A DNA stretch of 64,000 nucleotides from Oscillospiraceae bacterium (GTDB taxonomy: Bacteria > Bacillota > Clostridia > Oscillospirales > CAG-382): the NCBI GenBank assembly GCA_015063885.1, contig SVTH01000009.1, positions 32,110 to 96,109 on the forward strand, written 5' to 3'. Under the pieces are notes generated by a model. The model saw nothing but the letters and a program-made list of their open reading frames with translations, had not been told where the DNA came from and did no database searches. Below, one piece after another: positions 31,571-46,376 of the stretch. Positions within the stretch are counted from its first letter, which is position 1, and each line of letters opens with the position of its first letter. The translations under genes were made by a program, and so were the position numbers.

Positions 31571-32535
31571 GGGACAATTCGTGAATCGCCCCTACTTTCA
31601 AACAGTTCTTACGTTACAGGAGGGTACATCTAATTCCCTACCATATCCCTGCTAATCCCCTTTCGGGGGGCTACGCACCCCTTGGTTTTGCTCCGAACGG
31701 CACTAACGTGCCTTGCTTTCTCCGCAAAACTTCGACTCCGCCGCGGGACAGCCTTCGTTTTCCTATCCTTACACCCTTCTCCGCGGCTCCGCTCAGAATG
31801 ACAGTCCAAGGGAAAGAACGGCAAAAACGCTACGCATATCGACAACACAACCCCTGTTTGTCACTCTGAGCGAGTGCGGGATAGAGCCGTCGTGGTTGTG
31901 CACAAGGAAACAACCCGCACGAGTCGAACTCTTATGAGTGGCGTGAGCCCGAATAAGAGTCAAAAAATGCCAAGCATTTTTTGAGGGTATGGCTACACAT
32001 TTGCACTACCGCTTTTTTCCGTTCCGTCAGTTACTAAAAAACAGTTCTTACGTTACAAAAGGATACATCTAATTCCCAACCATATCCCTGCGGGGCGCTA
32101 CGCACCCCTTGGTTTTGCTCCGAACGGCACTAACGTGCCTTGCTTTCTCCGCAAAACTTCGACTCCGCCGCGGGATTACCTTTTCTTTCCTATCCTTACA
32201 CCCTTCTCCGCGGCTCCGCTCAGAATGACAATCCTGGGGCGAGAAGGGTGAAAACGCTACGCATATGGACAACGCCACCCCCTGTTTGTCACTCTGAGCG
32301 AGTGCGGGATAGAGTCGCCGCGGCTGTGCACAATGAAACAACCCGCACGAGTCGAACTTCCGCGCATGGCGTGAGCCTAAGCGGAAGGCAAAAAATGCTA
32401 AGCATTTTTTGAGGGTATGGTTACACATTTGCACTACCGTCTTTTCCGTTCCGTCAGTTACTATAAAACAGTTCTTACGTTACAGAAGGGTACATCTAAC
32501 TCCCTACCATATCCCTGCGGGGCGCAAAGCACCGT
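31571..32535 (-). repeat. tandem array (2 full units plus a partial third, period about 427-439 bp) of family-1 structured repeat, inverted relative to 775-2060
   Basis: Unit landmarks CATCTAA at 31627, 32066 and 32493. The reverse complement of 31850-31995 matches 1745-1890 with only about 5 mismatches in 145 nt. Confidence 0.9.
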
Positions 32536-32700: not shown

Positions 32701-32729
32701 TTGATTTCCTACATATTATGTGATATAAT
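32701..32729 (+). promoter_or_regulatory. sigma-A type promoter of the tip-adhesin gene
   Basis: TTGATT (32701-32706), 17-nt spacer, extended -10 TGATATAAT (hexamer 32724-32729), in a local AT-rich patch. Confidence 0.55.
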
Positions 32730-32787
32730 ATTATGTACGAATATTACTTTGGGGTTTTATATAGAAAAAGGGCAAAGGCCGATACTT

Positions 32788-35700
32788 ATGAACAGAAAAA
32801 CCTTATTTTCAATACCCTTCCCGCGGCAACGGTACGCCAACCGTCTTGTGGCAGTTTTCCTGCTGTCCATCGTCATTGTGACGGCGGTCTTCTGGCGTCT
32901 GAAGCTGACGGGCATCACCTTAGCCGGGGAAGCATTCTGCGGCATGGACGAACACACCCATACGGAGGAATGCCTGGCGGAAGGCTGTGAAAAGCAGGAG
33001 CACACCCACGTGGAGCTTTGCTATACCGATCCCGAGGCGGACGTGGAGACCGCCGTGGAGTGGGAGGCTTCCCTGGGGGAGTATGAGGACACGGTGTTCT
33101 ATACCTCCGACCTCCTGGCCGTGGCGGAAAGCCAGCTTGGCTATACCGAAAGCGAGCGGAACTTCACCATCTCCCAAACCGGCGCAAGATGCGGCTACAC
33201 CCGTTACGGCGCTTGGTACGGCAACCCCTACGGGGAGTGGTCCGCCATGTTCGTTTCCTTCTGTCTGGAGTATGCGGGGATCCCCGATACCTTCGCCCCC
33301 TACGGCGCAGGTGCGGAGACCATGCGTACCGAATGGGATCAAAGCGGCCTGCTGTTCGGCCGTGAAGAATACCTCCCCATCCCCGGGGACCTGATCTTCT
33401 TCGATACTGACGCAGACGGCAAGGCGGAAACCGTGGGCATCCTGTACAGCCACTCGGGCACCCGGATCACCGTGATCCAGGGGGACGTGGAGGGCGCCGT
33501 TGCCGCCGTCACGTACCTCCCCAACGACGGACGCATCCTCTCCTACGGCTCCATGAACGAAGTGATCCGTGCTTCCGCTACGGAAGACGAGCTGGTTCAT
33601 TTGGACTTTACCGCCAAATATCTGGACACGCTCCCCACCTACGAAGAGGTGGACGAGACCCTCACCTCCCTGGAAGAGGATATGGACGCATACGAGGCCT
33701 ATTTCCTGGAGGTGGGTAAGCAGGCACAAACGGCTTACACGCATTTGGAAGGCCTGGGCAGACTCCGGCCCCTGGTAAGCAACGCATACAAATCCCAAGA
33801 TCTGGAATGGATCTGGCAAGCCGAATCCTTCAAAACCATAGAGGCTCAGACCATCCCCGATCTTCCCGTTTACGCAGTCAACCCCAAGGAATCTCCCACC
33901 ACCGACGAAATCTTGGGGGGCAAAGGATACGGCACCATCATTTACGGCGGCTCCCCCGAAGAATATTACCTCTCGATTTATCCCGATAGTTACGATAATC
34001 GCCAGAGTGCTTCTTGCGGCTATTTCCAATGGTGGAAAGCCTACGTCATTGAAGCAGAACCCGGGGTAGGATATTACGTCAGCAAAATTCACTATTATTA
34101 CGGTGATGGGCAGACCAAGGAGAAGGTAAAGGCCACCAGCTCCACCGGTTTTGTGTATTTCATGCACTGCACTGACGATCTTTTCACCCAAACGCCGGAA
34201 ACCGAAATAATCCCTATCGGAACCTTTATCAGCGTGACTGTGCCCGAAGGTGCCGAGTCACTCTTCGCCATTGCGGACGGCGATACGTACCCGTACAAAA
34301 AATTCACCAAGGGCACCTTGCGCGGCACGTTGGTCACGGGAGACGCACCCCGGCAGAAGGATCCCATTGACAACTCCGACAAACTGACCACGGTTGAGAC
34401 CGTAGACACAAGTAAATACATCACCATCAACCTGTTCGATTACGGCGAAAAGGTCAGCGGTCTCTATAACACCAACGCTCCGTTCACCGGAAACGGGCCT
34501 GCTGCCGCCAACACCTTCTACCCTGCCTTTAAGCTGGGTTCGACCTCTGATCCCGCCACCAGCTCCAGCTGGAATTCCTTGTCCACTTTCGGCTTTGATC
34601 TTGGTAACCTGTTGGCCTACGACGTGGAACGCATGGACGGCGTCAATATCGAAGGCACCATCAACCAAGTAACAAACGACGTCTCTTCGCTTCAAGGCAA
34701 CGTTCCCTTGGTGGGCATGATGTACCCCACGCTGCTGGGCGATTACCCTGCCGTCTACGGGAATACAGAACATACCTCAACGCTTTCCTTGCAGTATCTG
34801 TTCCATCCGGACAGCGGATACACGAAACAGCAAAACACGGCCAACATCAACCACCTGTTGCAGTACGACGAAGAAACCGGCGCCTACTATTACGACAGCC
34901 GCAAGAACTTCGCTCAGTTCGATCACGCCACCAATAACTTCATCGTCTACGATCAGATCATGACCCCCGGCTTTGCGGTCTATCCCTTCGGCAACTTCAT
35001 GCCCCTCAACGACATCAGAACCCAGGCCACCCAAGTGACGTCTGTCAACAGAGAGTGGTTCAGAAACGTTGCCCACAGTGCATGGTATAAATACGTTCAT
35101 GCGGTGGATGCAGAGCACGTGGATCTTGAGGAATACAAAGATATCTATATTGCCATCTCCAAGCTGATCCCCTTGATGGACGATCAGGATGGCGACGGTG
35201 TGAAGAATTACGATTGGCATTACGGTGATGTTCTGAAAGCATATTTCAGCCAATCCGGAACTCCCGAGCTTCCCGAGGATCCCGCGGCCGGTCCCAATGC
35301 CCGCCCCCATCTTTCCAACCTGTACACCTTGGATTACGACGAGCCCACCAACTTCCATTTCGGCATGGATATGCACATGGAGTTTATGATGCCCAAGGAC
35401 GGCATGACGGGCAAAGACGGCAAGCAAGAAATGATCTATAAGTTCTCCGGGGACGACGACGTTTGGGTCTATATCGACGACGTGCTGTTCCTGGATCTGT
35501 CCGGTACCCACCGTCACGTGGGCGGTGAGATCAACTTCGCCAAGGGCGAGGTGTATTACTACTATCTGGACACCACCAAAGGCGACGTTTACACCTACGA
35601 AGAGCTTATTGCCGCCGTCGCCGCAAACGACACCACGAAGGGACGGATCGTCACCTTTGCGGAGATCCTGGAAAACGCAGGCAAATCCACGGACGTGCTC

Positions 35701-37494
35701 AATGCCAAAGGCACCTTCGAAAACTACACCGAGCACCAATTTGACTTCTACTATATGGAACGCGGTGCAGGCTCCGGCGTGTGCAGTATGTACTTCAACA
35801 TGCCCCTGCTCCAAACCAACCGTATCGAAGTTGTGAAGGAAATGAACGAAGAGGCCGCCAATGCCTTGGGCAACCCCGAGTTCCTGTTCCAGATTCTGAA
35901 GGTTGATGGCGCCGGCAATAAAACCGAGGAGCCTCTGTACGCACCCGGCACGCCTTACCAAGTGTTGGACGTGTACGGCAACGTGATCGCCACCCGCACG
36001 GTGGGAGAAAACGGCGTGTTCTATCTCCACGCCAACGAGCGTGCCGATTTTGCGATTCCCGAAAACGGCGGTTCCTACTACGTCCGCGAGCTGTTGGACG
36101 AAAAGGTATTTGAACAGTACGGCAAGGTCACCGTGGACGGCGTTTCCTACACCACGGATACCTACACCAACGTAGAGCTGAGCTCAGACACCTTCAAGGG
36201 CGTAGAAGGCCCCGTCATGAACGCCAGCAGCGGCAACGCAAAATTCATCTTCGTCAACCACGTGGATCCTCACAAATACGGCACCTTTGAGATCTCCAAG
36301 ACTGCCAACGAGTATTCCGATACCGTCGCGCCCGGCACCTTTACGTTCTCGGTGATGTTCGGGGATCTTCCCCTGCCCGTGGGCACGCCCTACACCTTGA
36401 TCGACGCCAACGGCAACGAGACGGCCGAGACCGTCAAGGCGGCAGGCATCCTCACCCTGCAGGCGGGTCAGCGTGCGGTCTTCAACAAAGTCCTGGCAGG
36501 CACCAACGTCCTGGTGAAGGAGCTGGATGCGGAAAAATACTTCGTGGAATACACCGCAGAATATCCCGCGGGGACCGACTACCTCCTGACGGAGGACGAA
36601 AACGGCTACGTCACCATTCCCGTGGGCGCCTCCGTGACCTCGTCCCTTTCCGTGTACAACGACCGTAAGGGCACCAAGCTGGAGGTGACGGGCGGCAAGG
36701 AAGTTCTGTATGACGACGGAACGGCAGGCACCTACACCTTCGTGCTGGAGGAGGTAGACGAAAACGGCAACCTCCTTGCAGACGGCATCTACCTGGAGCA
36801 GACGATCACCGTAACGGAAAACGGCAGCTTTACCTTTACGCTGAACTACCCCGAGGAGACCACCCCGGGCACCTATTACTACCGGGTTTACGAGAAGGGC
36901 GCCGACGCCGCCGCAGGCGGTGACGAGACCCTGTTTCCCTTCACCGTGGCAGTGGAGAAGGACGAAAACGGCGTGTTGACGGCGACGGCTGACGGTGCAG
37001 ACGCCATCAAGTTTGTAAACCGTGACGTCCGCTCCCTCACCGTTTCCAAGACGGTGGAAGGCCTGGCCGATCCCGACGGGTACACCTTCGACTTCACCGT
37101 GAACGCCTCCGTCGGCGGCGTGCAGCTGAACGGCGAGTACCGCACCGACAAGGGAATCCTCGTATTCACCGACGGCGTTGCCACCTTCACCCTGAAGCAC
37201 GGTGAGTCGCTGACCATTCTGGATCTGCCCTACGGCACCGTCTGGACGGTCACCGAGGGACACGCTCCCGGCTTCTACACCGAAAATGCTGTGGGCGAGG
37301 GCGACCGTGTGATCGGCTCCTCCGCAAGCGGCGAGCTGAAGGAAAACGCTTCCGTGGCTTACTACAACATCGGCGGCGCAGAGCTTCCCGCCACCGGCGG
37401 CTTTGCCCGTGACCTCTTCCCCTTGATGGGCTCCGTGCTGATGCTGGGCTCTACTGCAGGGGCGGTCATCTACCGCAAGAAGCGGAAAGAATAA
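32788..37494 (+). CDS. giant LPXTG-anchored surface protein, probable pilus tip adhesin (degenerate CHAP-like domain, fibro-slime/PA14-like domain, Cna-B/isopeptide-type repeats)
   Basis: Start MNRKTLF at 32788, downstream of the promoter. It has an N-terminal signal anchor and a CHAP-like region (YGEWSAMFVSFCLEYAG...PGDLIFFD...TVGILY). FSGDDDVWVYIDDVLFLDLSGTHRHVGGEINF is a fibro-slime/PA14-type motif. TYTFVLEEVDENGN...YYYRVYEKG is a pilin isopeptide-linkage-type domain. The C-terminal sorting signal is LPATGG plus a hydrophobic helix plus RKKRKE. Confidence 0.8.
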   Translation: MNRKTLFSIPFPRQRYANRLVAVFLLSIVIVTAVFWRLKLTGITLAGEAFCGMDEHTHTEECLAEGCEKQEHTHVELCYTDPEADVETAVEWEASLGEYEDTVFYTSDLLAVAESQLGYTESERNFTISQTGARCGYTRYGAWYGNPYGEWSAMFVSFCLEYAGIPDTFAPYGAGAETMRTEWDQSGLLFGREEYLPIPGDLIFFDTDADGKAETVGILYSHSGTRITVIQGDVEGAVAAVTYLPNDGRILSYGSMNEVIRASATEDELVHLDFTAKYLDTLPTYEEVDETLTSLEEDMDAYEAYFLEVGKQAQTAYTHLEGLGRLRPLVSNAYKSQDLEWIWQAESFKTIEAQTIPDLPVYAVNPKESPTTDEILGGKGYGTIIYGGSPEEYYLSIYPDSYDNRQSASCGYFQWWKAYVIEAEPGVGYYVSKIHYYYGDGQTKEKVKATSSTGFVYFMHCTDDLFTQTPETEIIPIGTFISVTVPEGAESLFAIADGDTYPYKKFTKGTLRGTLVTGDAPRQKDPIDNSDKLTTVETVDTSKYITINLFDYGEKVSGLYNTNAPFTGNGPAAANTFYPAFKLGSTSDPATSSSWNSLSTFGFDLGNLLAYDVERMDGVNIEGTINQVTNDVSSLQGNVPLVGMMYPTLLGDYPAVYGNTEHTSTLSLQYLFHPDSGYTKQQNTANINHLLQYDEETGAYYYDSRKNFAQFDHATNNFIVYDQIMTPGFAVYPFGNFMPLNDIRTQATQVTSVNREWFRNVAHSAWYKYVHAVDAEHVDLEEYKDIYIAISKLIPLMDDQDGDGVKNYDWHYGDVLKAYFSQSGTPELPEDPAAGPNARPHLSNLYTLDYDEPTNFHFGMDMHMEFMMPKDGMTGKDGKQEMIYKFSGDDDVWVYIDDVLFLDLSGTHRHVGGEINFAKGEVYYYYLDTTKGDVYTYEELIAAVAANDTTKGRIVTFAEILENAGKSTDVLNAKGTFENYTEHQFDFYYMERGAGSGVCSMYFNMPLLQTNRIEVVKEMNEEAANALGNPEFLFQILKVDGAGNKTEEPLYAPGTPYQVLDVYGNVIATRTVGENGVFYLHANERADFAIPENGGSYYVRELLDEKVFEQYGKVTVDGVSYTTDTYTNVELSSDTFKGVEGPVMNASSGNAKFIFVNHVDPHKYGTFEISKTANEYSDTVAPGTFTFSVMFGDLPLPVGTPYTLIDANGNETAETVKAAGILTLQAGQRAVFNKVLAGTNVLVKELDAEKYFVEYTAEYPAGTDYLLTEDENGYVTIPVGASVTSSLSVYNDRKGTKLEVTGGKEVLYDDGTAGTYTFVLEEVDENGNLLADGIYLEQTITVTENGSFTFTLNYPEETTPGTYYYRVYEKGADAAAGGDETLFPFTVAVEKDENGVLTATADGADAIKFVNRDVRSLTVSKTVEGLADPDGYTFDFTVNASVGGVQLNGEYRTDKGILVFTDGVATFTLKHGESLTILDLPYGTVWTVTEGHAPGFYTENAVGEGDRVIGSSASGELKENASVAYYNIGGAELPATGGFARDLFPLMGSVLMLGSTAGAVIYRKKRKE

Positions 37495-37547: not shown

Positions 37548-37905
37548 GGGAAGGTCAGCGTCGGACCCCCTCAGTCACGGCGTGTCCGCCGTGACAGCTC
37601 CCCCTTTGACAAGGGGCAGCCTTTCGCCGCCCCGCAGGGGGATTGTTTCGTTCGTGTCAATGGGCAATGCGGGGTAAAATTCGTTTTTCGCCGTTCACGA
37701 TGCGGGAAACATGGGGACCGGAATTTTACCAATGCCCCCTTCGTTTCCGTAGGGGGCGACGTCCACGGCGCCCCACCCTGCGGGAGGCAAGGCACGTATT
37801 CCAACCAACGCCCCCTTCGTTTCCGTAGGGGTTGACGTCCACGGCAACCCATCCTGCGGGCGGCGAGGCAGGAATTTCAACCAACGCCCCCTTCGTTTCC
37901 ACATA
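37548..37905. repeat. cluster of family-2 intergenic repeats (tandem about 77-85-bp units)
   Basis: CCCCCTTCGTTTCCGTAGGGG(G/T)(C/T)GACGTCCACGGC...CCTGCGGG..G..AGGC repeats at about 37735, 37812 and 37888. It matches units at 27230-27330 and 8840-8900 (inverted). Confidence 0.85.
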
Positions 37906-37945: not shown

Positions 37946-38521
37946 TTATTCACAACGGATCAACGTATACTCGCCGCCGTAGGTATTCCTGGCGAACAAG
38001 GTGAGGGCGTATTCATCCTTACACAGGTTCTCACGGGAGACGTCCGACGTTTTTTCCACCCATTTCACGGTGTAGGTGTACCGCACCCCTGCGGTATCAA
38101 TGACGGAAAGGGTGTCTCCGATGGAAAGCATCTCCACGCAGGCAAGCTGTCCTTTGGCGTCACTGCCGCCCACCACCAGGGTACTGTCGTGAACACTGCC
38201 TGCATAGCGGCGGGGATATTCCCCCACCGAGCCGCCGTCCCATGCGTTTGAAACGGGCAACAGAACGTCGTAGGCGGGGATTTCCAGCACGGCGCAGAAA
38301 TCCTCTCCCCCCAGCTCCAACACGGTCATTTCCACGTTCAGCCTGCCGTCGGGGGCACCGTCGGCAACGGGGGGCATCAGCTCCAGCATTTTTTCCGCCG
38401 TCTCACGGGCGAGGGTTGCGTTCCGCCCCGCCATCCAATGGGAGCCCAGGAAGAGCACCACCGCAGACACCGCCAGGAGGATCCCCAAGATCATCAAAAC
38501 ACGGGAAAGCTTCTTTCTCAT
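37946..38521 (-). CDS. sortase-fold protein lacking the canonical catalytic His and Cys (pseudo-sortase)
   Basis: It has an N-terminal TM anchor and the sortase-like strands AVLEIPAYDVLLPV and IGDTLSVIDTAGVRYTYTVKWVEKTSDV. VVGGSD replaces the (I/S)AHR(G) His motif and ALTLFARNTYGG replaces TL(I/L)TC. A C-terminal TLIRCE retains Arg. It overlaps the minor pilin gene by 4 nt. Confidence 0.6.
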   Translation of the reverse strand: MRKKLSRVLMILGILLAVSAVVLFLGSHWMAGRNATLARETAEKMLELMPPVADGAPDGRLNVEMTVLELGGEDFCAVLEIPAYDVLLPVSNAWDGGSVGEYPRRYAGSVHDSTLVVGGSDAKGQLACVEMLSIGDTLSVIDTAGVRYTYTVKWVEKTSDVSRENLCKDEYALTLFARNTYGGEYTLIRCE

Positions 38522-39456
38522 ACGTCAACCCTGCCGGTGCGCACGGCGACCATCACCAACGCCGCCCCTCCGAAGAAGAGAAGCAGGATATAGGGCCAAA
38601 GGATGCCGGTATCGCCGGGAGAGGGAGTGCTTTCGGAGCTGTCCTCCGAGGGGATGTAGGTATTGGTCACCGTAAAGGTGGTTCCGTTTTGCTCCACGGT
38701 CACGGTGTACGCTTCGGAAACGTTCAGCTCCGCCACCGTCCAAAGGCTTCCGTCGTCGGGAGCCGTCCAGGTGTGGCACCAGTCGTTCTCCCCGGAAAGA
38801 GTCACGGTCTCCCGGAGGACGCCGTCCTTGTAGATGGCTACCTCGACGGATGCGGGGCGTTCCACGCCCAGGGCGTCCTGCCATTGCTTCACCACGCTGT
38901 AGGTGATCTCCCGGTCCTCCACAGGATGGCTTTCCTGCTTGGGAATGGCGGTCACGTCGTAAACGGGCAGGCCGTCTCCGCCCTCGCCGGGCAACGCCAC
39001 CAGGAAGGTCTCGAAGCGATAACCCCTGCCGCCGTGCTCACGGTATTGGGTGGGGATCAGATACAGCCCCGTCTCCAGGGATGCAAAGGACGCCTTGCCC
39101 TCCCCGTCCGTCACGGTCTTTGCCGTGGGGGTGATCCCGTCGGCCAGGAGGTAAGCGTAGTAGGTCTCCGCCACCTTGCGCCACTCTCCCTGGGTGGTCA
39201 CCCGAGAGAGATCAACGGGGTATTCCGCAAAATCGCCTGCGGGAGCAAAGGATTCCCCGCTCCACACGGCAACCTTGTAAACTGCGATTTCCAGCCCTTC
39301 AAAGGGAGTGCCGTCCCCGGTGTACACCACCGTCAGGGAGCAATCCTTCTCCGGATCCACCAACGAAGGATCAAACGCCCCCGCCGTGGCGCCGAAGACG
39401 CCGCAAAGGAGTACCGCACACAGCAGATACAGCAGGATCTTTTTTACGTGTTTCAT
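38518..39456 (-). CDS. minor pilin / Cna-B-type surface protein with non-canonical sorting signal
   Basis: It has a signal peptide MKHVKKILLYLLCAVLLCGVFGATAGA and a Cna-B-like domain (YSVVKQWQD...VEVAIYKDG...WTVAELNVSEAYTVTV). The C-terminus is SPGDTG plus a hydrophobic helix plus RTGR. It overlaps the sortase gene by 4 nt. Confidence 0.7.
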   Translation of the reverse strand: MKHVKKILLYLLCAVLLCGVFGATAGAFDPSLVDPEKDCSLTVVYTGDGTPFEGLEIAVYKVAVWSGESFAPAGDFAEYPVDLSRVTTQGEWRKVAETYYAYLLADGITPTAKTVTDGEGKASFASLETGLYLIPTQYREHGGRGYRFETFLVALPGEGGDGLPVYDVTAIPKQESHPVEDREITYSVVKQWQDALGVERPASVEVAIYKDGVLRETVTLSGENDWCHTWTAPDDGSLWTVAELNVSEAYTVTVEQNGTTFTVTNTYIPSEDSSESTPSPGDTGILWPYILLLFFGGAALVMVAVRTGRVDV

Positions 39457-40289
39457 TCGTCTCCGTCGCTCGCTTTCTTTACAGGCTTAAACAAAACGAT
39501 GAGCATCAGCACGAACAGGATGGGCAGTGCCACGATGGGGGTAACGATCAGGGTGTCGATCTGATAAGCGTCCGTGGTGATGTAAATGGTATGGTGTTCT
39601 ACGGTCTCGATCCGTCTGCCCCGCACCAAAAGCCGCTCGGTGTTGATCCCGTAGGGGGTGCAGGTCAGCAGGGTGCAATAATCTCCCCCATCCACCAAAG
39701 CCAGCTCCGATACGTCGGAAGGCTCCACGATGCGGATGCGGTCCACCTGGTAGGTGAGGGTACGGTCCAGAATGGTGATGGTGAACACGTCCCCGATCTC
39801 CATTCTGTCCAGGTCGGTAAACAGCTTGGCGCTGGGAAGTCCTCGGTGGGCAGAGATCACGGTGTGGGTGGTCTCCCCGCCTACGGGAAGGCTGCTGCCC
39901 TCCAGATGCCCGATGGCCACGTTCAGCACCGCCGCAGAGGTGCCGTGGTACAGGGGAAGCTCAATGCCGATCTTGGGAATGGTGGCGTACCCCATCATGC
40001 CGTTGCCGTTGAGGTCCAGGATCTCGTAATAGTCCGGCACCCTGCCGTAATGGAGCAAGGGATAATCCAGCTCCGCCAGGGCGCGGTTGTATTCCTCCGC
40101 ACGCTCAAACAGGGCGGTGTAATCCTCTTTTTGGATGTTGTTCAGCATGGCCTCGTAGTCCACGATGGCCTGGGACTGGGTGCGGGAGTTCCAATAATCC
40201 GCCAGGGCGGGGTACAGCATCACCGAAAGCCCGATGAAGAACAGCAGAAGCAGGATAAAAGTGGGCCATTTTCTTTTTTTCATTGCCAT
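39453..40289 (-). CDS. class C (pilin-polymerising) sortase
   Basis: It has an N-terminal TM helix and the YPALADYWNSRTQSQ motif. The catalytic motifs VISAHRG, TLLTCTPYGINTERLLVRG are present. A C-terminal second TM helix is typical of class C. Confidence 0.85.
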   Translation of the reverse strand: MAMKKRKWPTFILLLLFFIGLSVMLYPALADYWNSRTQSQAIVDYEAMLNNIQKEDYTALFERAEEYNRALAELDYPLLHYGRVPDYYEILDLNGNGMMGYATIPKIGIELPLYHGTSAAVLNVAIGHLEGSSLPVGGETTHTVISAHRGLPSAKLFTDLDRMEIGDVFTITILDRTLTYQVDRIRIVEPSDVSELALVDGGDYCTLLTCTPYGINTERLLVRGRRIETVEHHTIYITTDAYQIDTLIVTPIVALPILFVLMLIVLFKPVKKASDGDE

Positions 40290-40424: not shown

Positions 40425-41861
40425 TCAGTCAGCGATCTTCTCCATTCTCTTCTTGGTTACCAGCAGGATACCGGTGCACAGCATCAGACCGCCGCCGATG
40501 AGAATGAACATGGTAGTACCGAAACCACCGGTCTCAGGGAGAACCGCACCGGTCTTGTTGATAATGTGGGTATCTGCATCATCCTTAGTGTAGATATCGC
40601 TGTCGATAACACCTACCAAAGTCTTGTTTGCGTCGCCAATGACAACAACTTCACGACCGCTCAGTTCGTTATAGCCGTCGGGAGCATTGGTCTCTTCCAA
40701 ATAATATGTTCCGGCAGACAGACCCTTAATTGTAGCCTTACCGTCCTTGGTGGTAATAACAACACCGGTCTCTCCTTCGGTAGCAACGCGATAAATGCCT
40801 TCTGCTTCTTTCACCACTTTAATCTCTACGCCGCCAGTTGGGTGAGTATAAAGTTTAAACTCAGCGCCATCCAAAATGGGGTATTTGTCTTCGCCGGTCG
40901 TCTCTTTAGTCTTCACAAATTCAAACTTGTAGGTGGTAACTTCAGCTTTCACAGGATCAGTTGCGGTGAGATCATTCTCATCGCCATATTCCAAATGTGC
41001 TTCGTTGGGGTTGGTGCCATCGCCCTTAACCTTTGCGTTTTCGTTCAGAATCGCATGATACTTGATTACGATCTTCTCGCTGGCATTCAAGGTTTTGATA
41101 TACTCGTTGTCAAAAGCAATTTCAAAAGTGCAATCGTCACTAGGATTTCCATAACCATCAGTAATAGCCGTTTTGATGGTGTATCCCGTGGTGGGCACAG
41201 TCGTCAAAACACCCCCGTCATCGATTTCAACGGAGTCGATCTGCACGAAATCCAAGCCTTCGGACATTTTATCGTGCACGGTATAGTTTTCAGCGCCGCT
41301 TCCCACAGTAACGGTAATGGTATAATACACAGCCTGACCAATGGTCACAGAACCGCTGCCCACTTCCTTCTCAATACCGGGAACAGTGTTCTTCTCTTCA
41401 AAGTAGAATACTTCGTTATGCGTGTTCAAAGCGCAAAGAGCGCCAAGCGTGGAATCAACCAAATAATAACCAAAGTTCAAGCCTGCAAACTCGACAGTAT
41501 CGCCGGAAGCAGTGGCAGTGGCATTCGGAGTCATACCCGCCGCATATTTAAGTGCCTCCTGTGCCAACTCTACCATTTGGGTCTCGTTGGGATGTACCAC
41601 TTCTACCAAATAGCCTTCGATGTTGATTTCAAAATAAGCCGCACCTGCGCCGGTTTTGAAAAATTTCTCCCAATCAGACAACGGCTTGTAAGAGTACGAA
41701 TCGCCGGAGAAGCTTTCAAGAGTAGCCAACTGATAAACGCTATACTTTTGGCCGCTAACAGTATTATTGATGGTGATAGAGCCACTACCAGCCGCCAAAA
41801 CGGGAATACAGCATGCCACCAACAGCATTGCTGCGCAGAGGATCGCTAAAAGTTTTTTCAT
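40425..41861 (-). CDS. major (backbone) pilin, LPXTG-anchored
   Basis: It has a signal peptide and the E-box GTYYLEETNAPDGYNEL. The sorting signal is LPETGG plus a hydrophobic helix plus KKRMEK. Confidence 0.8.
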   Translation of the reverse strand: MKKLLAILCAAMLLVACCIPVLAAGSGSITINNTVSGQKYSVYQLATLESFSGDSYSYKPLSDWEKFFKTGAGAAYFEINIEGYLVEVVHPNETQMVELAQEALKYAAGMTPNATATASGDTVEFAGLNFGYYLVDSTLGALCALNTHNEVFYFEEKNTVPGIEKEVGSGSVTIGQAVYYTITVTVGSGAENYTVHDKMSEGLDFVQIDSVEIDDGGVLTTVPTTGYTIKTAITDGYGNPSDDCTFEIAFDNEYIKTLNASEKIVIKYHAILNENAKVKGDGTNPNEAHLEYGDENDLTATDPVKAEVTTYKFEFVKTKETTGEDKYPILDGAEFKLYTHPTGGVEIKVVKEAEGIYRVATEGETGVVITTKDGKATIKGLSAGTYYLEETNAPDGYNELSGREVVVIGDANKTLVGVIDSDIYTKDDADTHIINKTGAVLPETGGFGTTMFILIGGGLMLCTGILLVTKKRMEKIAD

Positions 41862-41914: not shown

Positions 41915-42517
41915 TTAGTCCATCCACTCCAAGGAATCAAAAGGCCAGATGCGGAAGAGGATCTTACCCACGATCTGATCATCAGTTACACAGCCGATCA
42001 CGGTACTGCGGCTGTCGATAGAAGTATCTCGTTGATCCCCCATCAAAAAGAACTGATTTTCCGGCACCTGGAAAGGAAACTCCACGTCACACTCTCCCAA
42101 GGCTTTCACCGTCAAATAGGGCTCGTCCAGATATTCTCCGTTGACGAATACGTTGCCTTCGCCGTCGATCTCGATATAATCCCCCGGAATGCCGATGACA
42201 CGCTTGATCAAGATCTTGTTGGAGTAAGAAAAGGCGCACAGGTCACCCCTGTCGGGGTCCTTGGTCTTGGCAAGCACCACGATATCCCCCTCGGTGAGAG
42301 TGGGCTCCATGCTGGTCCCTGCGATCTGCACCACGGGAAGCACCAGCGTGGCAATGAGCACCGCCACCGCCGCCACCACGATCAAGGCGTATACCGTGCT
42401 TTTCAGCACCCGCTTGTATCGCAGCTTGTATTTTTCTCGTTTGATCTCGCCCTGCAGCTGCTCCGCGGAAGGGAGGTTCTGCAGAGCGTCTGCGTTGTTC
42501 TTCTCGTTCTGCTTCAT
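41915..42517 (-). CDS. signal peptidase I (S26 family), pilus-locus associated
   Basis: The catalytic Ser box IAGTSMEPTL and Lys box ILIKRVIGIPGD are present, along with GDQRDTSIDSR. The start MKQNEKNN at 42517 overlaps the upstream stop in an ATGA. Confidence 0.8.
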   Translation of the reverse strand: MKQNEKNNADALQNLPSAEQLQGEIKREKYKLRYKRVLKSTVYALIVVAAVAVLIATLVLPVVQIAGTSMEPTLTEGDIVVLAKTKDPDRGDLCAFSYSNKILIKRVIGIPGDYIEIDGEGNVFVNGEYLDEPYLTVKALGECDVEFPFQVPENQFFLMGDQRDTSIDSRSTVIGCVTDDQIVGKILFRIWPFDSLEWMD

Positions 42518-42837
42518 GTCTCTCCGTCTCCGTCGGCGCCTTCTTCGGGAAGCTGTTCCCATTCCACAGGGTCCTGAGCTTCCTCCAAATGTTGGCTGAG
42601 CCGCCGTATATTCTCCAGGTACTGCGCCGCGGCGGCCTCCGCCGCCTCAAAAACGCCGTTGAGCTTCAGTGCCGCCTCCGCAATGGAGCCTGCCTCCATC
42701 TCCGCAATGTTGCGGTCGGAAAGCCGCTTTTCCAACTGTGCCAGCTTGCGCTCCAACTGATCCGCACGGTCCGTTTGCATCAGCAAAAGCTCCAGAAGCT
42801 GCTTGCGGTTGAGTTTCTTCAGTTCCTTCTCTGTCAA
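42514..42837 (-). CDS. small coiled-coil protein of unknown function, first gene of pilus operon
   Basis: 107 aa, heptad-rich (LKKLNRKQLLELLLMQTDRADQLERKLAQLEKRL), with an acidic tail. It is translationally coupled to signal peptidase I. Confidence 0.55.
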   Translation of the reverse strand: MTEKELKKLNRKQLLELLLMQTDRADQLERKLAQLEKRLSDRNIAEMEAGSIAEAALKLNGVFEAAEAAAAQYLENIRRLSQHLEEAQDPVEWEQLPEEGADGDGET

Positions 42838-43133: not shown

Positions 43134-43973
43134 TCACGACCGCAAGCGGCGGCAGGCCAGCTCCAGATGCGCCCGATGTTGGTTCCCGTCCTCCACGGTG
43201 TAGATGCGTGTGGTGTTGATACTGCTGTGCCCCAAAAGGTCGGCCAGCCTGACGATGTCACGGCAAACGGCGTAAAAGGTTCTGGCAAACAGATGGCGCA
43301 GATTGTGGGGGAACACCTTCTCCCGCTTCACTCCCGCACGGCGGCAGAGGGCTTTCATCTCCCGCCACACGTTGGAGCGGTTCAGCGGCTTTCCGTGCCC
43401 CGTGACGAACACGGCACCCGTTCGGATGCCCTTCCTCTTCAAATAGCCTCTCAGAGCCTTTCTGAGCGCCTCGGGCAGAAAGATCACGCGGGTCTTGTTC
43501 TTGCAGTTCACCACCGCCTTCCCCGTTGCCACGGCCTCTGCGGTGACGTAGCGCAATTCGCTGATGCGGATCCCCGTCTCGCAGATGGTGCGCAGGACGT
43601 AGGCGATCCTGCTCTCCCCCGCCGCACGGAGCAACGCGCGGTAGTCGCCCTTGGTCAGCTCCCGTTCCTCACTGCAGAACAATTGCTTCTGTACCCGGGG
43701 CAGGCGGACACAGCAATCCTCCCTGCCCATAAAGCGGAGCAGGCAATTGAGGGACACCAGCATAGAGCACACGCTGGCAGGGGCGTAGCTCTCCGAAAGC
43801 CGGCGCTTGTAGGCCACCGTCTCCCCCTTGGAAAGGGGTCTGTCCTCCAGAAAGGCGAGGAACCTCCGCCCGTCCCGCAGGTACTTTTCCACGGTGGCGG
43901 GACTCTTTTCCCCGTTTTGCAGGAACTCCCGAAATTGCTCTGTCAGCGCTTTTGCCTCCTTGTTTACGTTCAT
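43134..43973 (-). CDS. tyrosine site-specific recombinase (XerC/D / phage-integrase family)
   Basis: It has an N-terminal SAM-like domain. The catalytic signature is ETGIRISELRYV (Arg), HNLRHLFARTF (His-x-x-Arg) and LLGHSSINTTRIYT (His ... Tyr). Confidence 0.85.
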   Translation of the reverse strand: MNVNKEAKALTEQFREFLQNGEKSPATVEKYLRDGRRFLAFLEDRPLSKGETVAYKRRLSESYAPASVCSMLVSLNCLLRFMGREDCCVRLPRVQKQLFCSEERELTKGDYRALLRAAGESRIAYVLRTICETGIRISELRYVTAEAVATGKAVVNCKNKTRVIFLPEALRKALRGYLKRKGIRTGAVFVTGHGKPLNRSNVWREMKALCRRAGVKREKVFPHNLRHLFARTFYAVCRDIVRLADLLGHSSINTTRIYTVEDGNQHRAHLELACRRLRS

Positions 43974-44958: not shown

Positions 44959-44987
44959 TTTACATTTCCGAAAAGCTGTGCTATACT
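44959..44987 (+). promoter_or_regulatory. sigma-A type promoter of LytTR module 1
   Basis: TTTACA (44959-44964), 17-nt spacer, extended -10 TGCTATACT (hexamer 44982-44987). Confidence 0.55.
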
Positions 44988-45016
44988 ACCTCCGAAAAGA
45001 ACCACGGAGGCAGACC

Positions 45017-45727
45017 ATGACCTATCGCATCGCCCTTTGCGACGACGAGCCCGCACAGAGAGAATATCTGGAGAAAAAGCTTTCCCTGTTTGCCCAGGCG
45101 CGGCGGGTGCAGTTTGACTTCGCCCATTTTTCCTCGGCGGAGGCGTTTTTGTTCTGCTTCCGTGAGAACCGCAACATCGACTTGCTGTTTTTGGATATTG
45201 AGATGGCGGAGATGAACGGCATTGAGCTGGCCAAGGAGCTCCGCAAGGAGCAGGACGCTCTGCAGATCGTCTTCATCACAGGCTACCCCGATTACGTGGG
45301 GCAGGGCTACGACGTGGAGGCCTTACACTACCTCCTCAAGCCCGTGAGCACGGAAAAGCTGTTTGAGGTCTGCGACCGCTTTTTGAAGACGGCGGAGGAA
45401 CAGCCCCGCTTTTACCTGTTCCCCGCAGGGAAGGAAGTGGTGCGCCTTTACGAGAAGGAGATCCTTTACGGAGAATCGGAGGGGCATTACGTGATCTTAC
45501 ACACCAAGACGGAGGAGCTGAAGCTCCGCATGACCGTCCCCGAGCTGGAAAAGCGGCTGGGAGAAGGGTTTTTCCGCCCCTCCCGCTCCTTCGTGGTGAA
45601 CCTGCGGTACGTCACCCGCATCGCAAAAACGGAGATGCTTTTGGAAAACGGCGCGTCCGTCCCCTTGGGAAAGGGACTTTTCGACGAAGCCAATCGGGCG
45701 TTGATCGCCTTTTTAAGGGAGCTTTGA
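45017..45727 (+). CDS. two-component response regulator, receiver plus LytTR DNA-binding domain (module 1)
   Basis: MTYRIALCDDEP...FLDIEMAEMNGIELAKEL is the receiver with its phospho-acceptor Asp. The C-terminal part FFRPSRSFVVNLRYV is the LytTR domain. A GGAGG RBS precedes the start. Confidence 0.85.
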   Translation: MTYRIALCDDEPAQREYLEKKLSLFAQARRVQFDFAHFSSAEAFLFCFRENRNIDLLFLDIEMAEMNGIELAKELRKEQDALQIVFITGYPDYVGQGYDVEALHYLLKPVSTEKLFEVCDRFLKTAEEQPRFYLFPAGKEVVRLYEKEILYGESEGHYVILHTKTEELKLRMTVPELEKRLGEGFFRPSRSFVVNLRYVTRIAKTEMLLENGASVPLGKGLFDEANRALIAFLREL

Positions 45728-45728
45728 T

Positions 45729-46376
45729 ATGAGCAGACGGAGCGAAAAAAAGCTTGCCGCCTTTCAGAACGCCATTATGGAGCAGCATTACGCCGAGGTG
45801 GAGAACATCTACCGCAAGATGCGCACCTGGCGTCACGATTACCACAACCATATCCAGGTGCTGGCGGCCTATCTGGAGCAGGGAGACACGGAAAAGGCAC
45901 GGGAATTTCTGGGTGAGATCCAGGACACCCTCACCAAGGTGGACACGGTGCTGAAAACGGGGAACACCATGATCGACGCCATTTTGAACAGCAAGCTTTC
46001 CCTGATGCACGCAAGGGAGATCCGTGCTGACGCCACCGCAAAGGTGCCCGCCAAGCTGAGCGTGCGGGATATCGACCTGTGCGTCATCATCGGAAATTTG
46101 CTGGACAACGCCATGGAGGCCTGCGAGAAGCTTCCTGCGGGGAGCCGTTTTATCCGTATCTACATCAACGTGAAGGGAACGCATCTGTACATGTCCTTCA
46201 CCAACTCCGCAGGGAAAAAGCAGGAGAAGGTGGGAACGCTGTTCCGCTCCTCCAAGGGCGCCTTGGGCGGACTGGGGCTTTCACGGGTGGACAGCCTGGT
46301 GGCCGATTACGGCGGCTACGTCACCCGTGCTTCCGAGGACGGAGGCTTTACCACCGAGGTCATTTTACCCCTTTGA
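45729..46376 (+). CDS. soluble GHKL-type histidine kinase (AgrC/LytS-type catalytic core without membrane sensor, module 1)
   Basis: H-box RTWRHDYHNHIQVL, N-box IGNLLDNAMEA, G-box GGLGLSRV. No hydrophobic segment occurs in 215 aa. Confidence 0.75.
   Translation: MSRRSEKKLAAFQNAIMEQHYAEVENIYRKMRTWRHDYHNHIQVLAAYLEQGDTEKAREFLGEIQDTLTKVDTVLKTGNTMIDAILNSKLSLMHAREIRADATAKVPAKLSVRDIDLCVIIGNLLDNAMEACEKLPAGSRFIRIYINVKGTHLYMSFTNSAGKKQEKVGTLFRSSKGALGGLGLSRVDSLVADYGGYVTRASEDGGFTTEVILPL

Follow-up and report, generated by a model that had tools for sequence, protein, structure and literature searches.

In a 64,000-nucleotide stretch of DNA from an Oscillospiraceae bacterium (NCBI GenBank assembly GCA_015063885.1, contig SVTH01000009.1, positions 32,110 to 96,109 of the forward strand; this whole stretch is called the window), the last gene of a pilus operon is predicted to encode a protein with the fold of a sortase in which all three catalytic residues have been replaced. 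Its product is identical to NCBI MBE6579487.1, which is labelled 'hypothetical protein' and comes from a Ruminococcaceae/Oscillospiraceae metagenome-assembled genome (MAG). Sortases are textbook cysteine transpeptidases, and are used both as drug targets and as protein-engineering tools. Judged from sequence comparison, the protein belongs to a clade that constitutes a pseudoenzyme branch of the sortase superfamily, new to the literature as far as it was searched; literature searches for pseudo-, inactive or non-catalytic sortases returned none described in a pilus operon and no functional dead member. We propose, with a probability of roughly 45%, that the protein has no catalytic role and is instead a receptor or adaptor recognising the sorting signal of the neighbouring basal pilin, and that it would act in termination or anchoring of the pilus. 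The gene and the sites within it on which this proposal depends are as follows.

37946-38521, minus strand: pseudo-sortase gene, 191 aa (open reading frame (ORF) call; AlphaFold2 (AF2), Foldseek, and profile and hhalign homology)
38441-38509, minus strand: N-terminal membrane anchor, residues about 5 to 27 (LSRVLMILGILLAVSAVVLFLGS), with MRKK before it (sequence reading and AF2)
38162-38164, minus strand: Ser120, in the catalytic His column at the end of beta4; VVGGSD against IAGHNY or SAHRG
37988-37990, minus strand: Arg178, in the catalytic Cys column at the end of beta7; TLFAR against TLLTC or LFTC
37967-37969, minus strand: Tyr185, in the catalytic Arg column at the start of beta8; EYTLIRC against ERLLVRG
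37952-37954, minus strand: Cys190, a conserved non-catalytic Cys, present as Cys in 158 of 176 family sequences

The AF2 model of the protein had a mean predicted local distance difference test score (pLDDT) of 91.9 and a predicted template modelling score (pTM) of 0.84. It contained a helix spanning residues 2-48 and eight strands (residues 73-81, 86-91, 104-107, 115-120, 137-142, 146-158, 173-178, and 185-190), and the C-terminal residue, Glu191, lay one residue past beta8, with no C-terminal membrane helix. The topology is that of an N-in/C-out signal anchor followed by a sortase barrel, so that the protein is extracellular and anchored in the membrane. When the model was compared with PDB structures by Foldseek, the best 50 matches were sortases without exception (classes A, C, D and E), with probability 1.00 and E-values down to 7e-8, and matches covering the barrel only had a root-mean-square deviation of 2.5-3.7 Å across about 130-149 columns. 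A profile of 147 family members, from which active sortases were excluded, also matched the Ebp class C sortase (E=3.5e-5) and C. perfringens SrtD (E=5.5e-4) in PDB, and hhalign of the family against the neighbouring class C sortase (SrtC) with its orthologues gave a probability of 96.5% (E=1e-9). Searches with the single sequence returned little: Pfam Sortase (PF04203) was found below threshold (E=0.15; 12.3 bits against 26.6), no NCBIfam model matched at E<=1, the PDB search gave noise only, and spurious Kelch matches appeared among these searches. The predicted structure and the profile comparisons together confirm the sortase fold.

The protein does not resemble class C sortases at the level of class models, failing the cut-off of NCBIfam NF033745 (160 bits), for which the neighbouring gene scored 256 bits. 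The lid motif DP[FWY] was not recognisable; the residues aligned with it are Val63-Glu64-Met65, and Met65-Pro66 is conserved. Direct coupling analysis (DCA) paired Met65 with Ser109, and residue 66 with Gly119 and Asp142, and a lid-like segment around residues 65-66 is possible.

The register of the catalytic triad was taken from two independent sources, HMMER pairings with PDB sortases 24rr and 4d70 and gap-free alignments with active relatives. The AF2 model agrees with it, residues 120 and 178 being the last of beta4 and beta7 and residue 185 the first of beta8. The spacing of the catalytic Arg is C+7 in small sortases and C+9 in SrtC. In the alignment used for the tree, the His column was His in 100% of 25 active sequences and Ser in 77% of 43 dead ones. 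The Cys and Arg columns were likewise Cys and Arg in 100% of active relatives; among the 176 family sequences the former was Arg or Lys in 145 and the latter Tyr in 159. A complete H/C/R triad was found in only 2 of 176 family sequences, the active P0025 and P0026, leaving 174 without all three; the commonest combinations in dead members were S/R/Y, S/K/Y and T/K/Y. On this alignment, the entire triad of the protein is read as replaced, His by Ser120, Cys by Arg178, and Arg by Tyr185.

These results can be set against an earlier note on this DNA, which was written from the letters alone. Its reading of a sortase fold with an N-terminal anchor, without catalytic His and Cys and without any TLxTC motif, was borne out, with the helix of residues 2-48 in the model, Ser120 and Arg178 in the two columns, and TLFAR in place of the motif. 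Its view that the catalytic Arg is kept was wrong: Arg189 aligns with the second, non-catalytic R of RLLVRG, and the catalytic column holds Tyr185. The Cys column likewise holds Arg178, not Ala177. Among the outcomes that the note had named as speaking against it were a non-sortase fold and an alternative active-site Cys, for example in LACVEM or LIRCE. The fold stayed that of a sortase in both profile and structure comparison, and neither Cys fits: Cys128 of LACVEM was rejected as a relocated nucleophile since the family consensus at that position is Phe (81%), and Cys190 of LIRCE is probably of a structural type.

Cys190 deserves a fuller account, as it bears on a reading in which the protein is a rewired enzyme that processes the PPxTGD-type signal of the partner pilin through a Ser120/Lys178 dyad or a Cys190 nucleophile. 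The conservation of Cys190 (90%), Ser or Thr at position 120 (105 of 176), Arg or Lys at 178, and Tyr185 speaks for such an enzyme. However, 36 of 176 sequences have Ala, Gly or Val at position 120, and position 178 is more often Arg (77), a poor general base, than Lys (68), with Pro, Gly, Gln or Phe in others; nor is any His conserved across the family. Cys190 is also found in active relatives beside their own TLxTC Cys, lies five residues down beta8 from the site, and co-occurs with Cys104 in 102 of 176 sequences; the DCA pair Tyr106-Ile188 (i+j=294) puts 104 opposite 190 in the beta3-beta8 register. Cys190 is therefore most likely half of a structural disulfide with position 104, and was rejected as a relocated nucleophile. 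The protein itself has Arg104, which leaves its Cys190 unpaired and the disulfide lost. We regard a rewired enzyme as highly improbable, and return to the reading of a non-catalytic receptor, for which the genes around the pseudo-sortase are needed.

38518-39456, minus strand: partner Cna_B pilin, putative basal pilin, 312 aa (Pfam Cna_B, E=8e-12; synteny)
38590-38628, minus strand: degenerate sorting signal of the partner pilin, TPSPGDTGILWPY, pilin residues 277-289 (alignment of orthologues)
39453-40289, minus strand: class C sortase (pilin polymerase) with a C-terminal transmembrane (TM) helix (NCBIfam class_C_sortase NF033745, 256 bits against a cut-off of 160)
40425-41861, minus strand: major (shaft) pilin with an LPETGG sorting signal (NF033902 SpaH/EbpB major pilin, 98 bits against a cut-off of 95; Pfam GramPos_pilinBB and SpaA)
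41915-42562, minus strand: signal peptidase I gene, first of the conserved block (TIGR02227, 137 bits against a cut-off of 47; conserved synteny)
32701-37494, plus strand: tip-adhesin-like LPATGG protein, 1597 aa, convergent to the operon in the source species

Read on the minus strand, the operon runs from signal peptidase I through the major pilin, the class C sortase and the Cna_B pilin to the pseudo-sortase. The sequence ATGA at 38521-38518 holds both the stop of the Cna_B pilin gene and the start of the pseudo-sortase gene, which thus overlap by 4 nt. The class C sortase has an intact triad of His148 (SAHRG), Cys210 (TLLTC) and Arg219 (TERLLV), and signal peptidase I has both its catalytic residues, Ser84 (SMEPT) and Lys120 (KRVIG). 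No sortase other than the class C enzyme and the pseudo-sortase was found in the window; the search for a housekeeping sortase covered this stretch and not entire genomes.

In order to place the protein in a family, 1.84 billion cluster representatives were searched exhaustively. This search gave 2868 proteins (clustered at 50% identity) at E<=1e-3, of which 200 had E<=1e-30, compared with only 6 matches by a word-indexed search. The best 150 matches were all of about 180-210 aa and none was usefully named; one homologue carries the database label 'sortase'. A genome scan found the family in 28 loci, all in uncultured Clostridia gut MAGs (Oscillospiraceae, Acutalibacteraceae, Ruminococcus, Faecousia, and Ca. 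Avispirillum). Where the contig was long enough, the gene order was nearly always signal peptidase, tip adhesin, major pilin, SrtC, Cna_B pilin and pseudo-sortase, and wherever the upstream sequence was long enough to tell, the family gene came directly after that of the pilin. These two genes mostly shared 1-17 nt, with the 4-nt ATGA as the commonest form, and were separated by 3-50 nt in a few loci. In one locus, L004, the pilin/pseudo-sortase pair was found alone, with no SrtC within 10 kb.

A metagenome scan based on SrtC extended this picture to more distant operons, where the gene after the basal pilin belongs to the same family and has an intact triad, with the motifs IAGHNY, LTLFTCT and R..VRC. 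These active relatives reached only the generic TIGR01076 sortase model of NCBIfam and no class model. The family as a whole thus comprises small sortases of about 190-220 aa, which belong to none of NCBIfam's modelled classes (C, D, E, F, and GN) and are found in sortase-pilus operons of Oscillospirales gut bacteria (Oscillospiraceae/Ruminococcaceae and Acutalibacteraceae).

In a neighbour-joining tree of the catalytic domain, the dead sequences formed one clade, and this bipartition was recovered in 288 of 300 bootstrap replicates (Poisson distances) with the three triad columns removed. The active group was recovered as one clade in only 123 of 300 replicates, so the dead clade could be sister to the active sequences or nested among them. 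Residues common to both groups (Met65, Leu88-Pro89, Trp94, Pro103, Gly108, Asp142, Gly145, Phe176, and Arg189-Cys190) indicate common descent. Replaced in the dead clade are His120, Tyr122, His125, Thr177, Cys178 and Arg185, and conserved specifically within it are Ser120, Asp121, Gln125, Asp127, Phe128, Leu166 and Tyr185 (77-100%). A deep, separate branch of the dead clade was represented by L054, L056 and L057 (7771-8358), with Arg/Lys/Phe at the triad columns and a pilin signal of RPQTG-DTTNMTLY.

These data place the protein in a single deep clade that lost the triad, the other branch of the family keeping H/C/R, and trace it to small sortases linked to the basal pilin gene, not to the neighbouring SrtC. 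The earlier note had compared it with that SrtC; the homology it saw holds, and descent from SrtC does not, since a distinct small-sortase family takes its place. The same note was right that the gene is the last of the pilus operon and overlaps the minor pilin gene by 4 nt, and its remark that no pseudo-sortase of such a kind had been characterised agrees with our literature searches as far as they reached.

Loss of the triad could also mean that the gene is a functionless relic left by the decay of a second sortase gene, and some related operons indeed have no gene in the pseudo-sortase position. The ratio of nonsynonymous to synonymous substitution rates (dN/dS) in close pairs, however, was 0.08-0.32 for the family, compared with 0.09-0.22 for the basal pilin and 0.03-0.10 for SrtC. 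The clade is deep and diverse, its ORFs are intact and of constant length, its specific residues are 77-100% conserved, most loci still have the start/stop overlap with the pilin gene, and the AF2 model is confident. We give next to no credence to a relic. The sequences instead show purifying selection on the dead clade, with a new set of residues fixed at the former active site. The features expected of a pseudoenzyme at the sequence level were found together: active homologues, a lost triad, purifying selection, conserved residues specific to the dead members, and monophyly.

If the protein is a receptor, its ligand should be sought first in the co-produced pilin. The product of 38518-39456 consists of a signal peptide, a pilin N-domain, a Cna_B domain, a Pro/Ser-rich stalk and its own sorting signal. 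Its profile matches the N-domains of SpaD, SpaA and FimP and ends near the pilin-motif Lys, and the Lys of its 'PK' motif, Lys173, is invariant in 24 orthologues. It is putatively the basal pilin, given this N-domain and invariant Lys173, the Cna_B domain, the Pro-rich stalk, the distinct signal, and its minor place among the operon's genes. One ortholog, in L006 (9088-10206), has a disrupted frame with an in-frame stop within the aligned region and an unrelated C-terminus, while the pseudo-sortase downstream is intact; the disruption could stem from misassembly, or the gene could recently have become a pseudogene.

The sorting signal of this pilin differs according to the protein encoded downstream. 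With an active sortase the consensus is LPQTG-QLNWPxPVL, and with a dead one it is [P/A]PxTG-D[T/V]xxW[P/H]Y. Position 1 is Leu in 14 of 16 pilins with an active partner and in 2 of 31 with a dead partner. The rest of the core is largely retained in both groups, with Pro at position 2 (12/16 active, 31/31 dead), Thr at position 4 (16/16 and 27/31) and Gly at position 5 (16/16 and 30/31). The residue after the Gly is Gln in 11 of 16 and acidic in none of 16 with an active partner, and acidic in 30 of 31 with a dead partner. The scissile Thr has been replaced in three lineages of the dead clade, by Leu (L017, L021-23), by Met (L013), and by Pro in the source species, whose signal reads TPSPGD; canonical sortase substrates all have Thr at this position. 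The TPSPGD signal is identical in 7 independent metagenome contigs, and is therefore not an assembly error. The major and tip pilins listed all keep LPxTG-type signals, including the Thr. SrtC stays 60-82% identical across loci while the pilin signal differs between the clades.

Such a signal might be one that the protein shields from any sortase, leaving the pilus tethered to the membrane and not to peptidoglycan, which is a sharper version of the receptor proposal. A shield would agree with the de-optimised position 1 (Leu to Pro or Ala), with the loss of the scissile Thr in three lineages, TPSPGD included, with the conserved W[PH]Y segment and TM region after the cleavage site, and with the lack of another sortase within the 64-kb window. 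Yet PxTG is kept in 27 of 31 dead-clade pilins, which SrtC or an unlinked housekeeping sortase could still cleave, and to our knowledge no Gram-positive sortase pilus is membrane-anchored by design. We consider a shield quite unlikely in this strict form.

Coevolution was examined between and within genes. The mean pairwise distance was 0.56 for the pseudo-sortase family, which evolves as fast as the pilins, and 0.36 for SrtC and for signal peptidase. Mirror-tree partial correlations of the family were 0.62 with the basal pilin, 0.49 with SrtC, 0.00 with signal peptidase and -0.21 with the major pilin, although a correlation of this type cannot tell physical interaction from linkage. Within the protein, mean-field DCA of 324 sequences (effective number, Meff, 251) recovered the beta4-beta7, beta7-beta8, beta1-beta2 and beta3-beta8 pairings, and a coupled cluster of Trp94-Gly118, Gly118-Phe176, Phe176-Tyr185, Leu166-Tyr185 and Leu166-Arg189. 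In SrtA-type substrate complexes the LPXTG groove is lined by His-2, Cys-2, the beta6/beta7 loop and the Arg position. Since the cluster falls on positions that line this groove by homology, the substrate groove appears to be maintained as a unit in the dead clade.

Exchange between loci was also seen. L017, L021, L022 and L023 are mosaics in the pilin and pseudo-sortase genes: the L023 pilin is 98% identical to that of L017 and carries a C-terminal membrane segment of the L021/L022 type, while the L023 pseudo-sortase is L021-like; the L022 pseudo-sortase is 98% identical to that of L021, and the C-terminal sequence of L023 is almost exactly that of L022. These mosaics indicate recombination between or within the two genes.

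The correlation of 0.49 with SrtC could be taken to mean that the protein is a regulatory partner of SrtC, its sortase domain or helix pairing with the enzyme to tune activity or pilus length, without any binding to the basal pilin signal. SrtC is present in almost every locus, and pseudoenzymes are often allosteric partners of active paralogues. The gene, however, is tied most closely to that of the pilin, its direct neighbour, with which it shares a start/stop overlap in most loci, and not to SrtC, which is absent within 10 kb of the L004 pair. The family, moreover, descends from an enzyme distinct from SrtC, and what differs between the dead and active clades is the pilin signal rather than SrtC, which is 60-82% identical. 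A partnership with SrtC is rather unlikely on these grounds, and the basal pilin signal is preferred as the partner. Taken together, the pilin traits, the clade-dependent signal, the Thr losses and the mirror-tree correlations single out the C-terminal signal of the basal pilin as the likeliest ligand; the data point that way, short of proof, and the earlier note's suggestion of a chaperone, adaptor or lid likewise stays at the level of a proposal.

The receptor proposal may then be stated as a mechanism. The ancestral enzyme presumably processed the basal pilin signal, and its dead descendant would recognise a re-modelled version of that signal, for which cleavability is no longer needed. The protein would no longer cleave any substrate. 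Its retained groove (Trp94, Gly118, Leu166, Phe176, and Tyr185), possibly together with the membrane helix, would bind the sorting signal of the co-produced basal pilin. The weakest step is a possible pairing between Arg or Lys at 178 and the Asp newly present after TG. The basal pilin would in this way be kept at the membrane beside the class C sortase, so that its Lys173 accepts the growing shaft; acceptance by Lys173 would cap and tether the pilus, and cleavage of the basal pilin signal by the pseudo-sortase is not required. A stronger version is that a whole clade of gut Clostridia turned the sortase dedicated to the basal pilin into a substrate-trapping pseudoenzyme, which grips the partly uncleavable PPxTG-D signal (PSPG-D here) without cutting it, the pilus being ended and tethered by non-covalent capture at the membrane and not by transpeptidation to the cell wall. 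This version is somewhat unlikely.

Several observations weigh against a receptor for the basal pilin signal, in addition to the limit on mirror-tree correlations given above. The difference in signal between the two clades is a single phylogenetic event, and Fisher p-values overstate it; Thr loss alone was not significant (4/31 dead against 0/16 active, p=0.28). The accessibility of the groove and the placement of Arg178 and Tyr185 were derived from homology and not from model coordinates. The recombinants L022 and L023 join one type of pilin to another type of pseudo-sortase. An Arg178-Asp(+1) salt bridge was rejected as a within-clade covariation, because the partners of P0018 (Pro178) and P0021 (Phe178) still have xPxTGD; these two are counter-examples to the pairing, and the sole agreeing case is L030, with Gln178 and TG-L. 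The pairing is retained solely as a contrast between the two clades. Finally, four loci (L066, L073, L075, and L090) have an LPQTG-Q basal pilin (LPQTG-QLNWPVPVL) and yet no second sortase, active or dead, so that the gene in the pseudo-sortase position is dispensable in some lineages. These operons stop after this pilin (location about 7.6-7.7 kb in L066, L075 and L090, and about 2.0 kb in L073), and a convergent gene of about 800 aa comes next.

The surroundings of the operon in the window were also inspected. The tip adhesin gene lies between signal peptidase and the major pilin in most related loci; in L005, the closest one, it comes after the pseudo-sortase and shares its strand. Its convergent orientation was identical in all 8 independent contigs of the source species. 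An invertible tip-adhesin segment was rejected; given the same orientation in 8 contigs, and as no flanking inverted repeats were found, the convergent arrangement is a fixed rearrangement and not phase variation. Two tandem repeats occur nearby. One, with a 427-nt unit in two copies with 88% matches, is located at 31664-32533, just upstream of the tip adhesin gene, and could be a duplicated promoter or leader region; no Rfam family matched it. The other, a GC-rich 76-nt repeat of 2.3 copies at 37728-37900, lies inside the 450-nt gap between the tip adhesin and pseudo-sortase genes and also had no Rfam match. Directly upstream of the operon are a tyrosine recombinase of the Phage_integrase family (43134-43973, minus strand) and a response regulator of the LytTR type accompanied by a GHKL histidine kinase (44978-46376, plus strand). 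The recombinase and the LytTR/GHKL pair may be regulators of pilus expression.

The step proposed for the pseudo-sortase, the stop of polymerisation and the handling of the base subunit, is the least understood one, and if the substrate-trapping version is true, a Gram-positive pilus would be ended and anchored in a novel manner, by being captured non-covalently at the membrane. The carriers are abundant uncultured gut Oscillospirales, whose adhesive pili are essentially unstudied. The sister clades of active and dead proteins, together with two kinds of pilin signal, constitute a natural experiment that separates residues for binding from residues for chemistry, and their comparison could guide the design of non-cleaving modules that bind LPXTG. 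For annotation, proteins of the dead clade are now labelled 'hypothetical protein' or, wrongly, 'sortase'.

Among known systems, class C sortases such as the neighbouring enzyme and the SrtC structures 6ixz, 2xwg and 24rr are alike in fold (Foldseek probability 1.0; hhalign 96.5%), in pilus-operon context, and in having an N-terminal membrane helix with a segment before the barrel. The pseudo-sortase differs from them in lacking the triad, a match to the NCBIfam class C model, the C-terminal membrane helix and a recognisable lid, and is about 85 residues shorter. Much closer are the active small sortases that follow the basal pilin gene in related operons (P0025/P0026-like; L050-L128), which score 95-147 bits against the hidden Markov model of the dead family and share its size, N-terminal anchor and position directly after the basal pilin gene. 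They differ in keeping His120, Cys178, Arg185, Tyr122, His125 and Thr177, and their partner pilins carry LPQTG-Q, compared with PPxTG-D beside the dead proteins. Our literature search found no characterised example of an active small sortase after a basal pilin.

YwpE of B. subtilis, termed a 'truncated sortase-like protein' in a 2021 review of sortases (PMC8225981), is alike as an atypical member of the family without an assigned role, and is the only such protein that the review mentions. It differs in being truncated, and the review gives it no link to a pilus operon, whereas the protein described here has a full barrel with substituted catalytic residues.

In the canonical model of pilus anchoring, as given in PMC8088525 and PMC9046445, an active housekeeping sortase adds the basal pilin and anchors the pilus, an example being SpaB and SrtF of C. 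diphtheriae. The two arrangements are alike in that a dedicated second protein of the sortase family handles the basal pilin at the end of assembly, and in that the basal pilin carries an acceptor Lys together with a variant sorting signal peculiar to it. They differ in that the canonical protein is an active enzyme of class A or E, encoded elsewhere, which links the pilus to peptidoglycan, whereas the protein encoded beside the basal pilin gene here would be unable to form an acyl-enzyme.

The nearest parallel in concept is SipA/LepA of the S. pyogenes FCT pilus islands. According to PMC4049620, it is a signal-peptidase homologue without the Ser and Lys that keeps its peptide cleft and is essential for polymerisation, and its authors propose that it binds a pilus component. 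The dead sortase clade would be the second pseudoenzyme in Gram-positive pilus assembly, after SipA. The likeness is confined to the functional idea of a catalytically dead homologue of a secretion or anchoring protease in a pilus operon: SipA has the fold of signal peptidase I, an enzyme with a Ser/Lys dyad, and acts at the step of shaft polymerisation, whereas the fold here is that of a sortase and not of S26. The situation of SipA is in fact reversed in the present operon, in which the signal peptidase keeps Ser84 and Lys120 and the sortase paralogue is the dead member.

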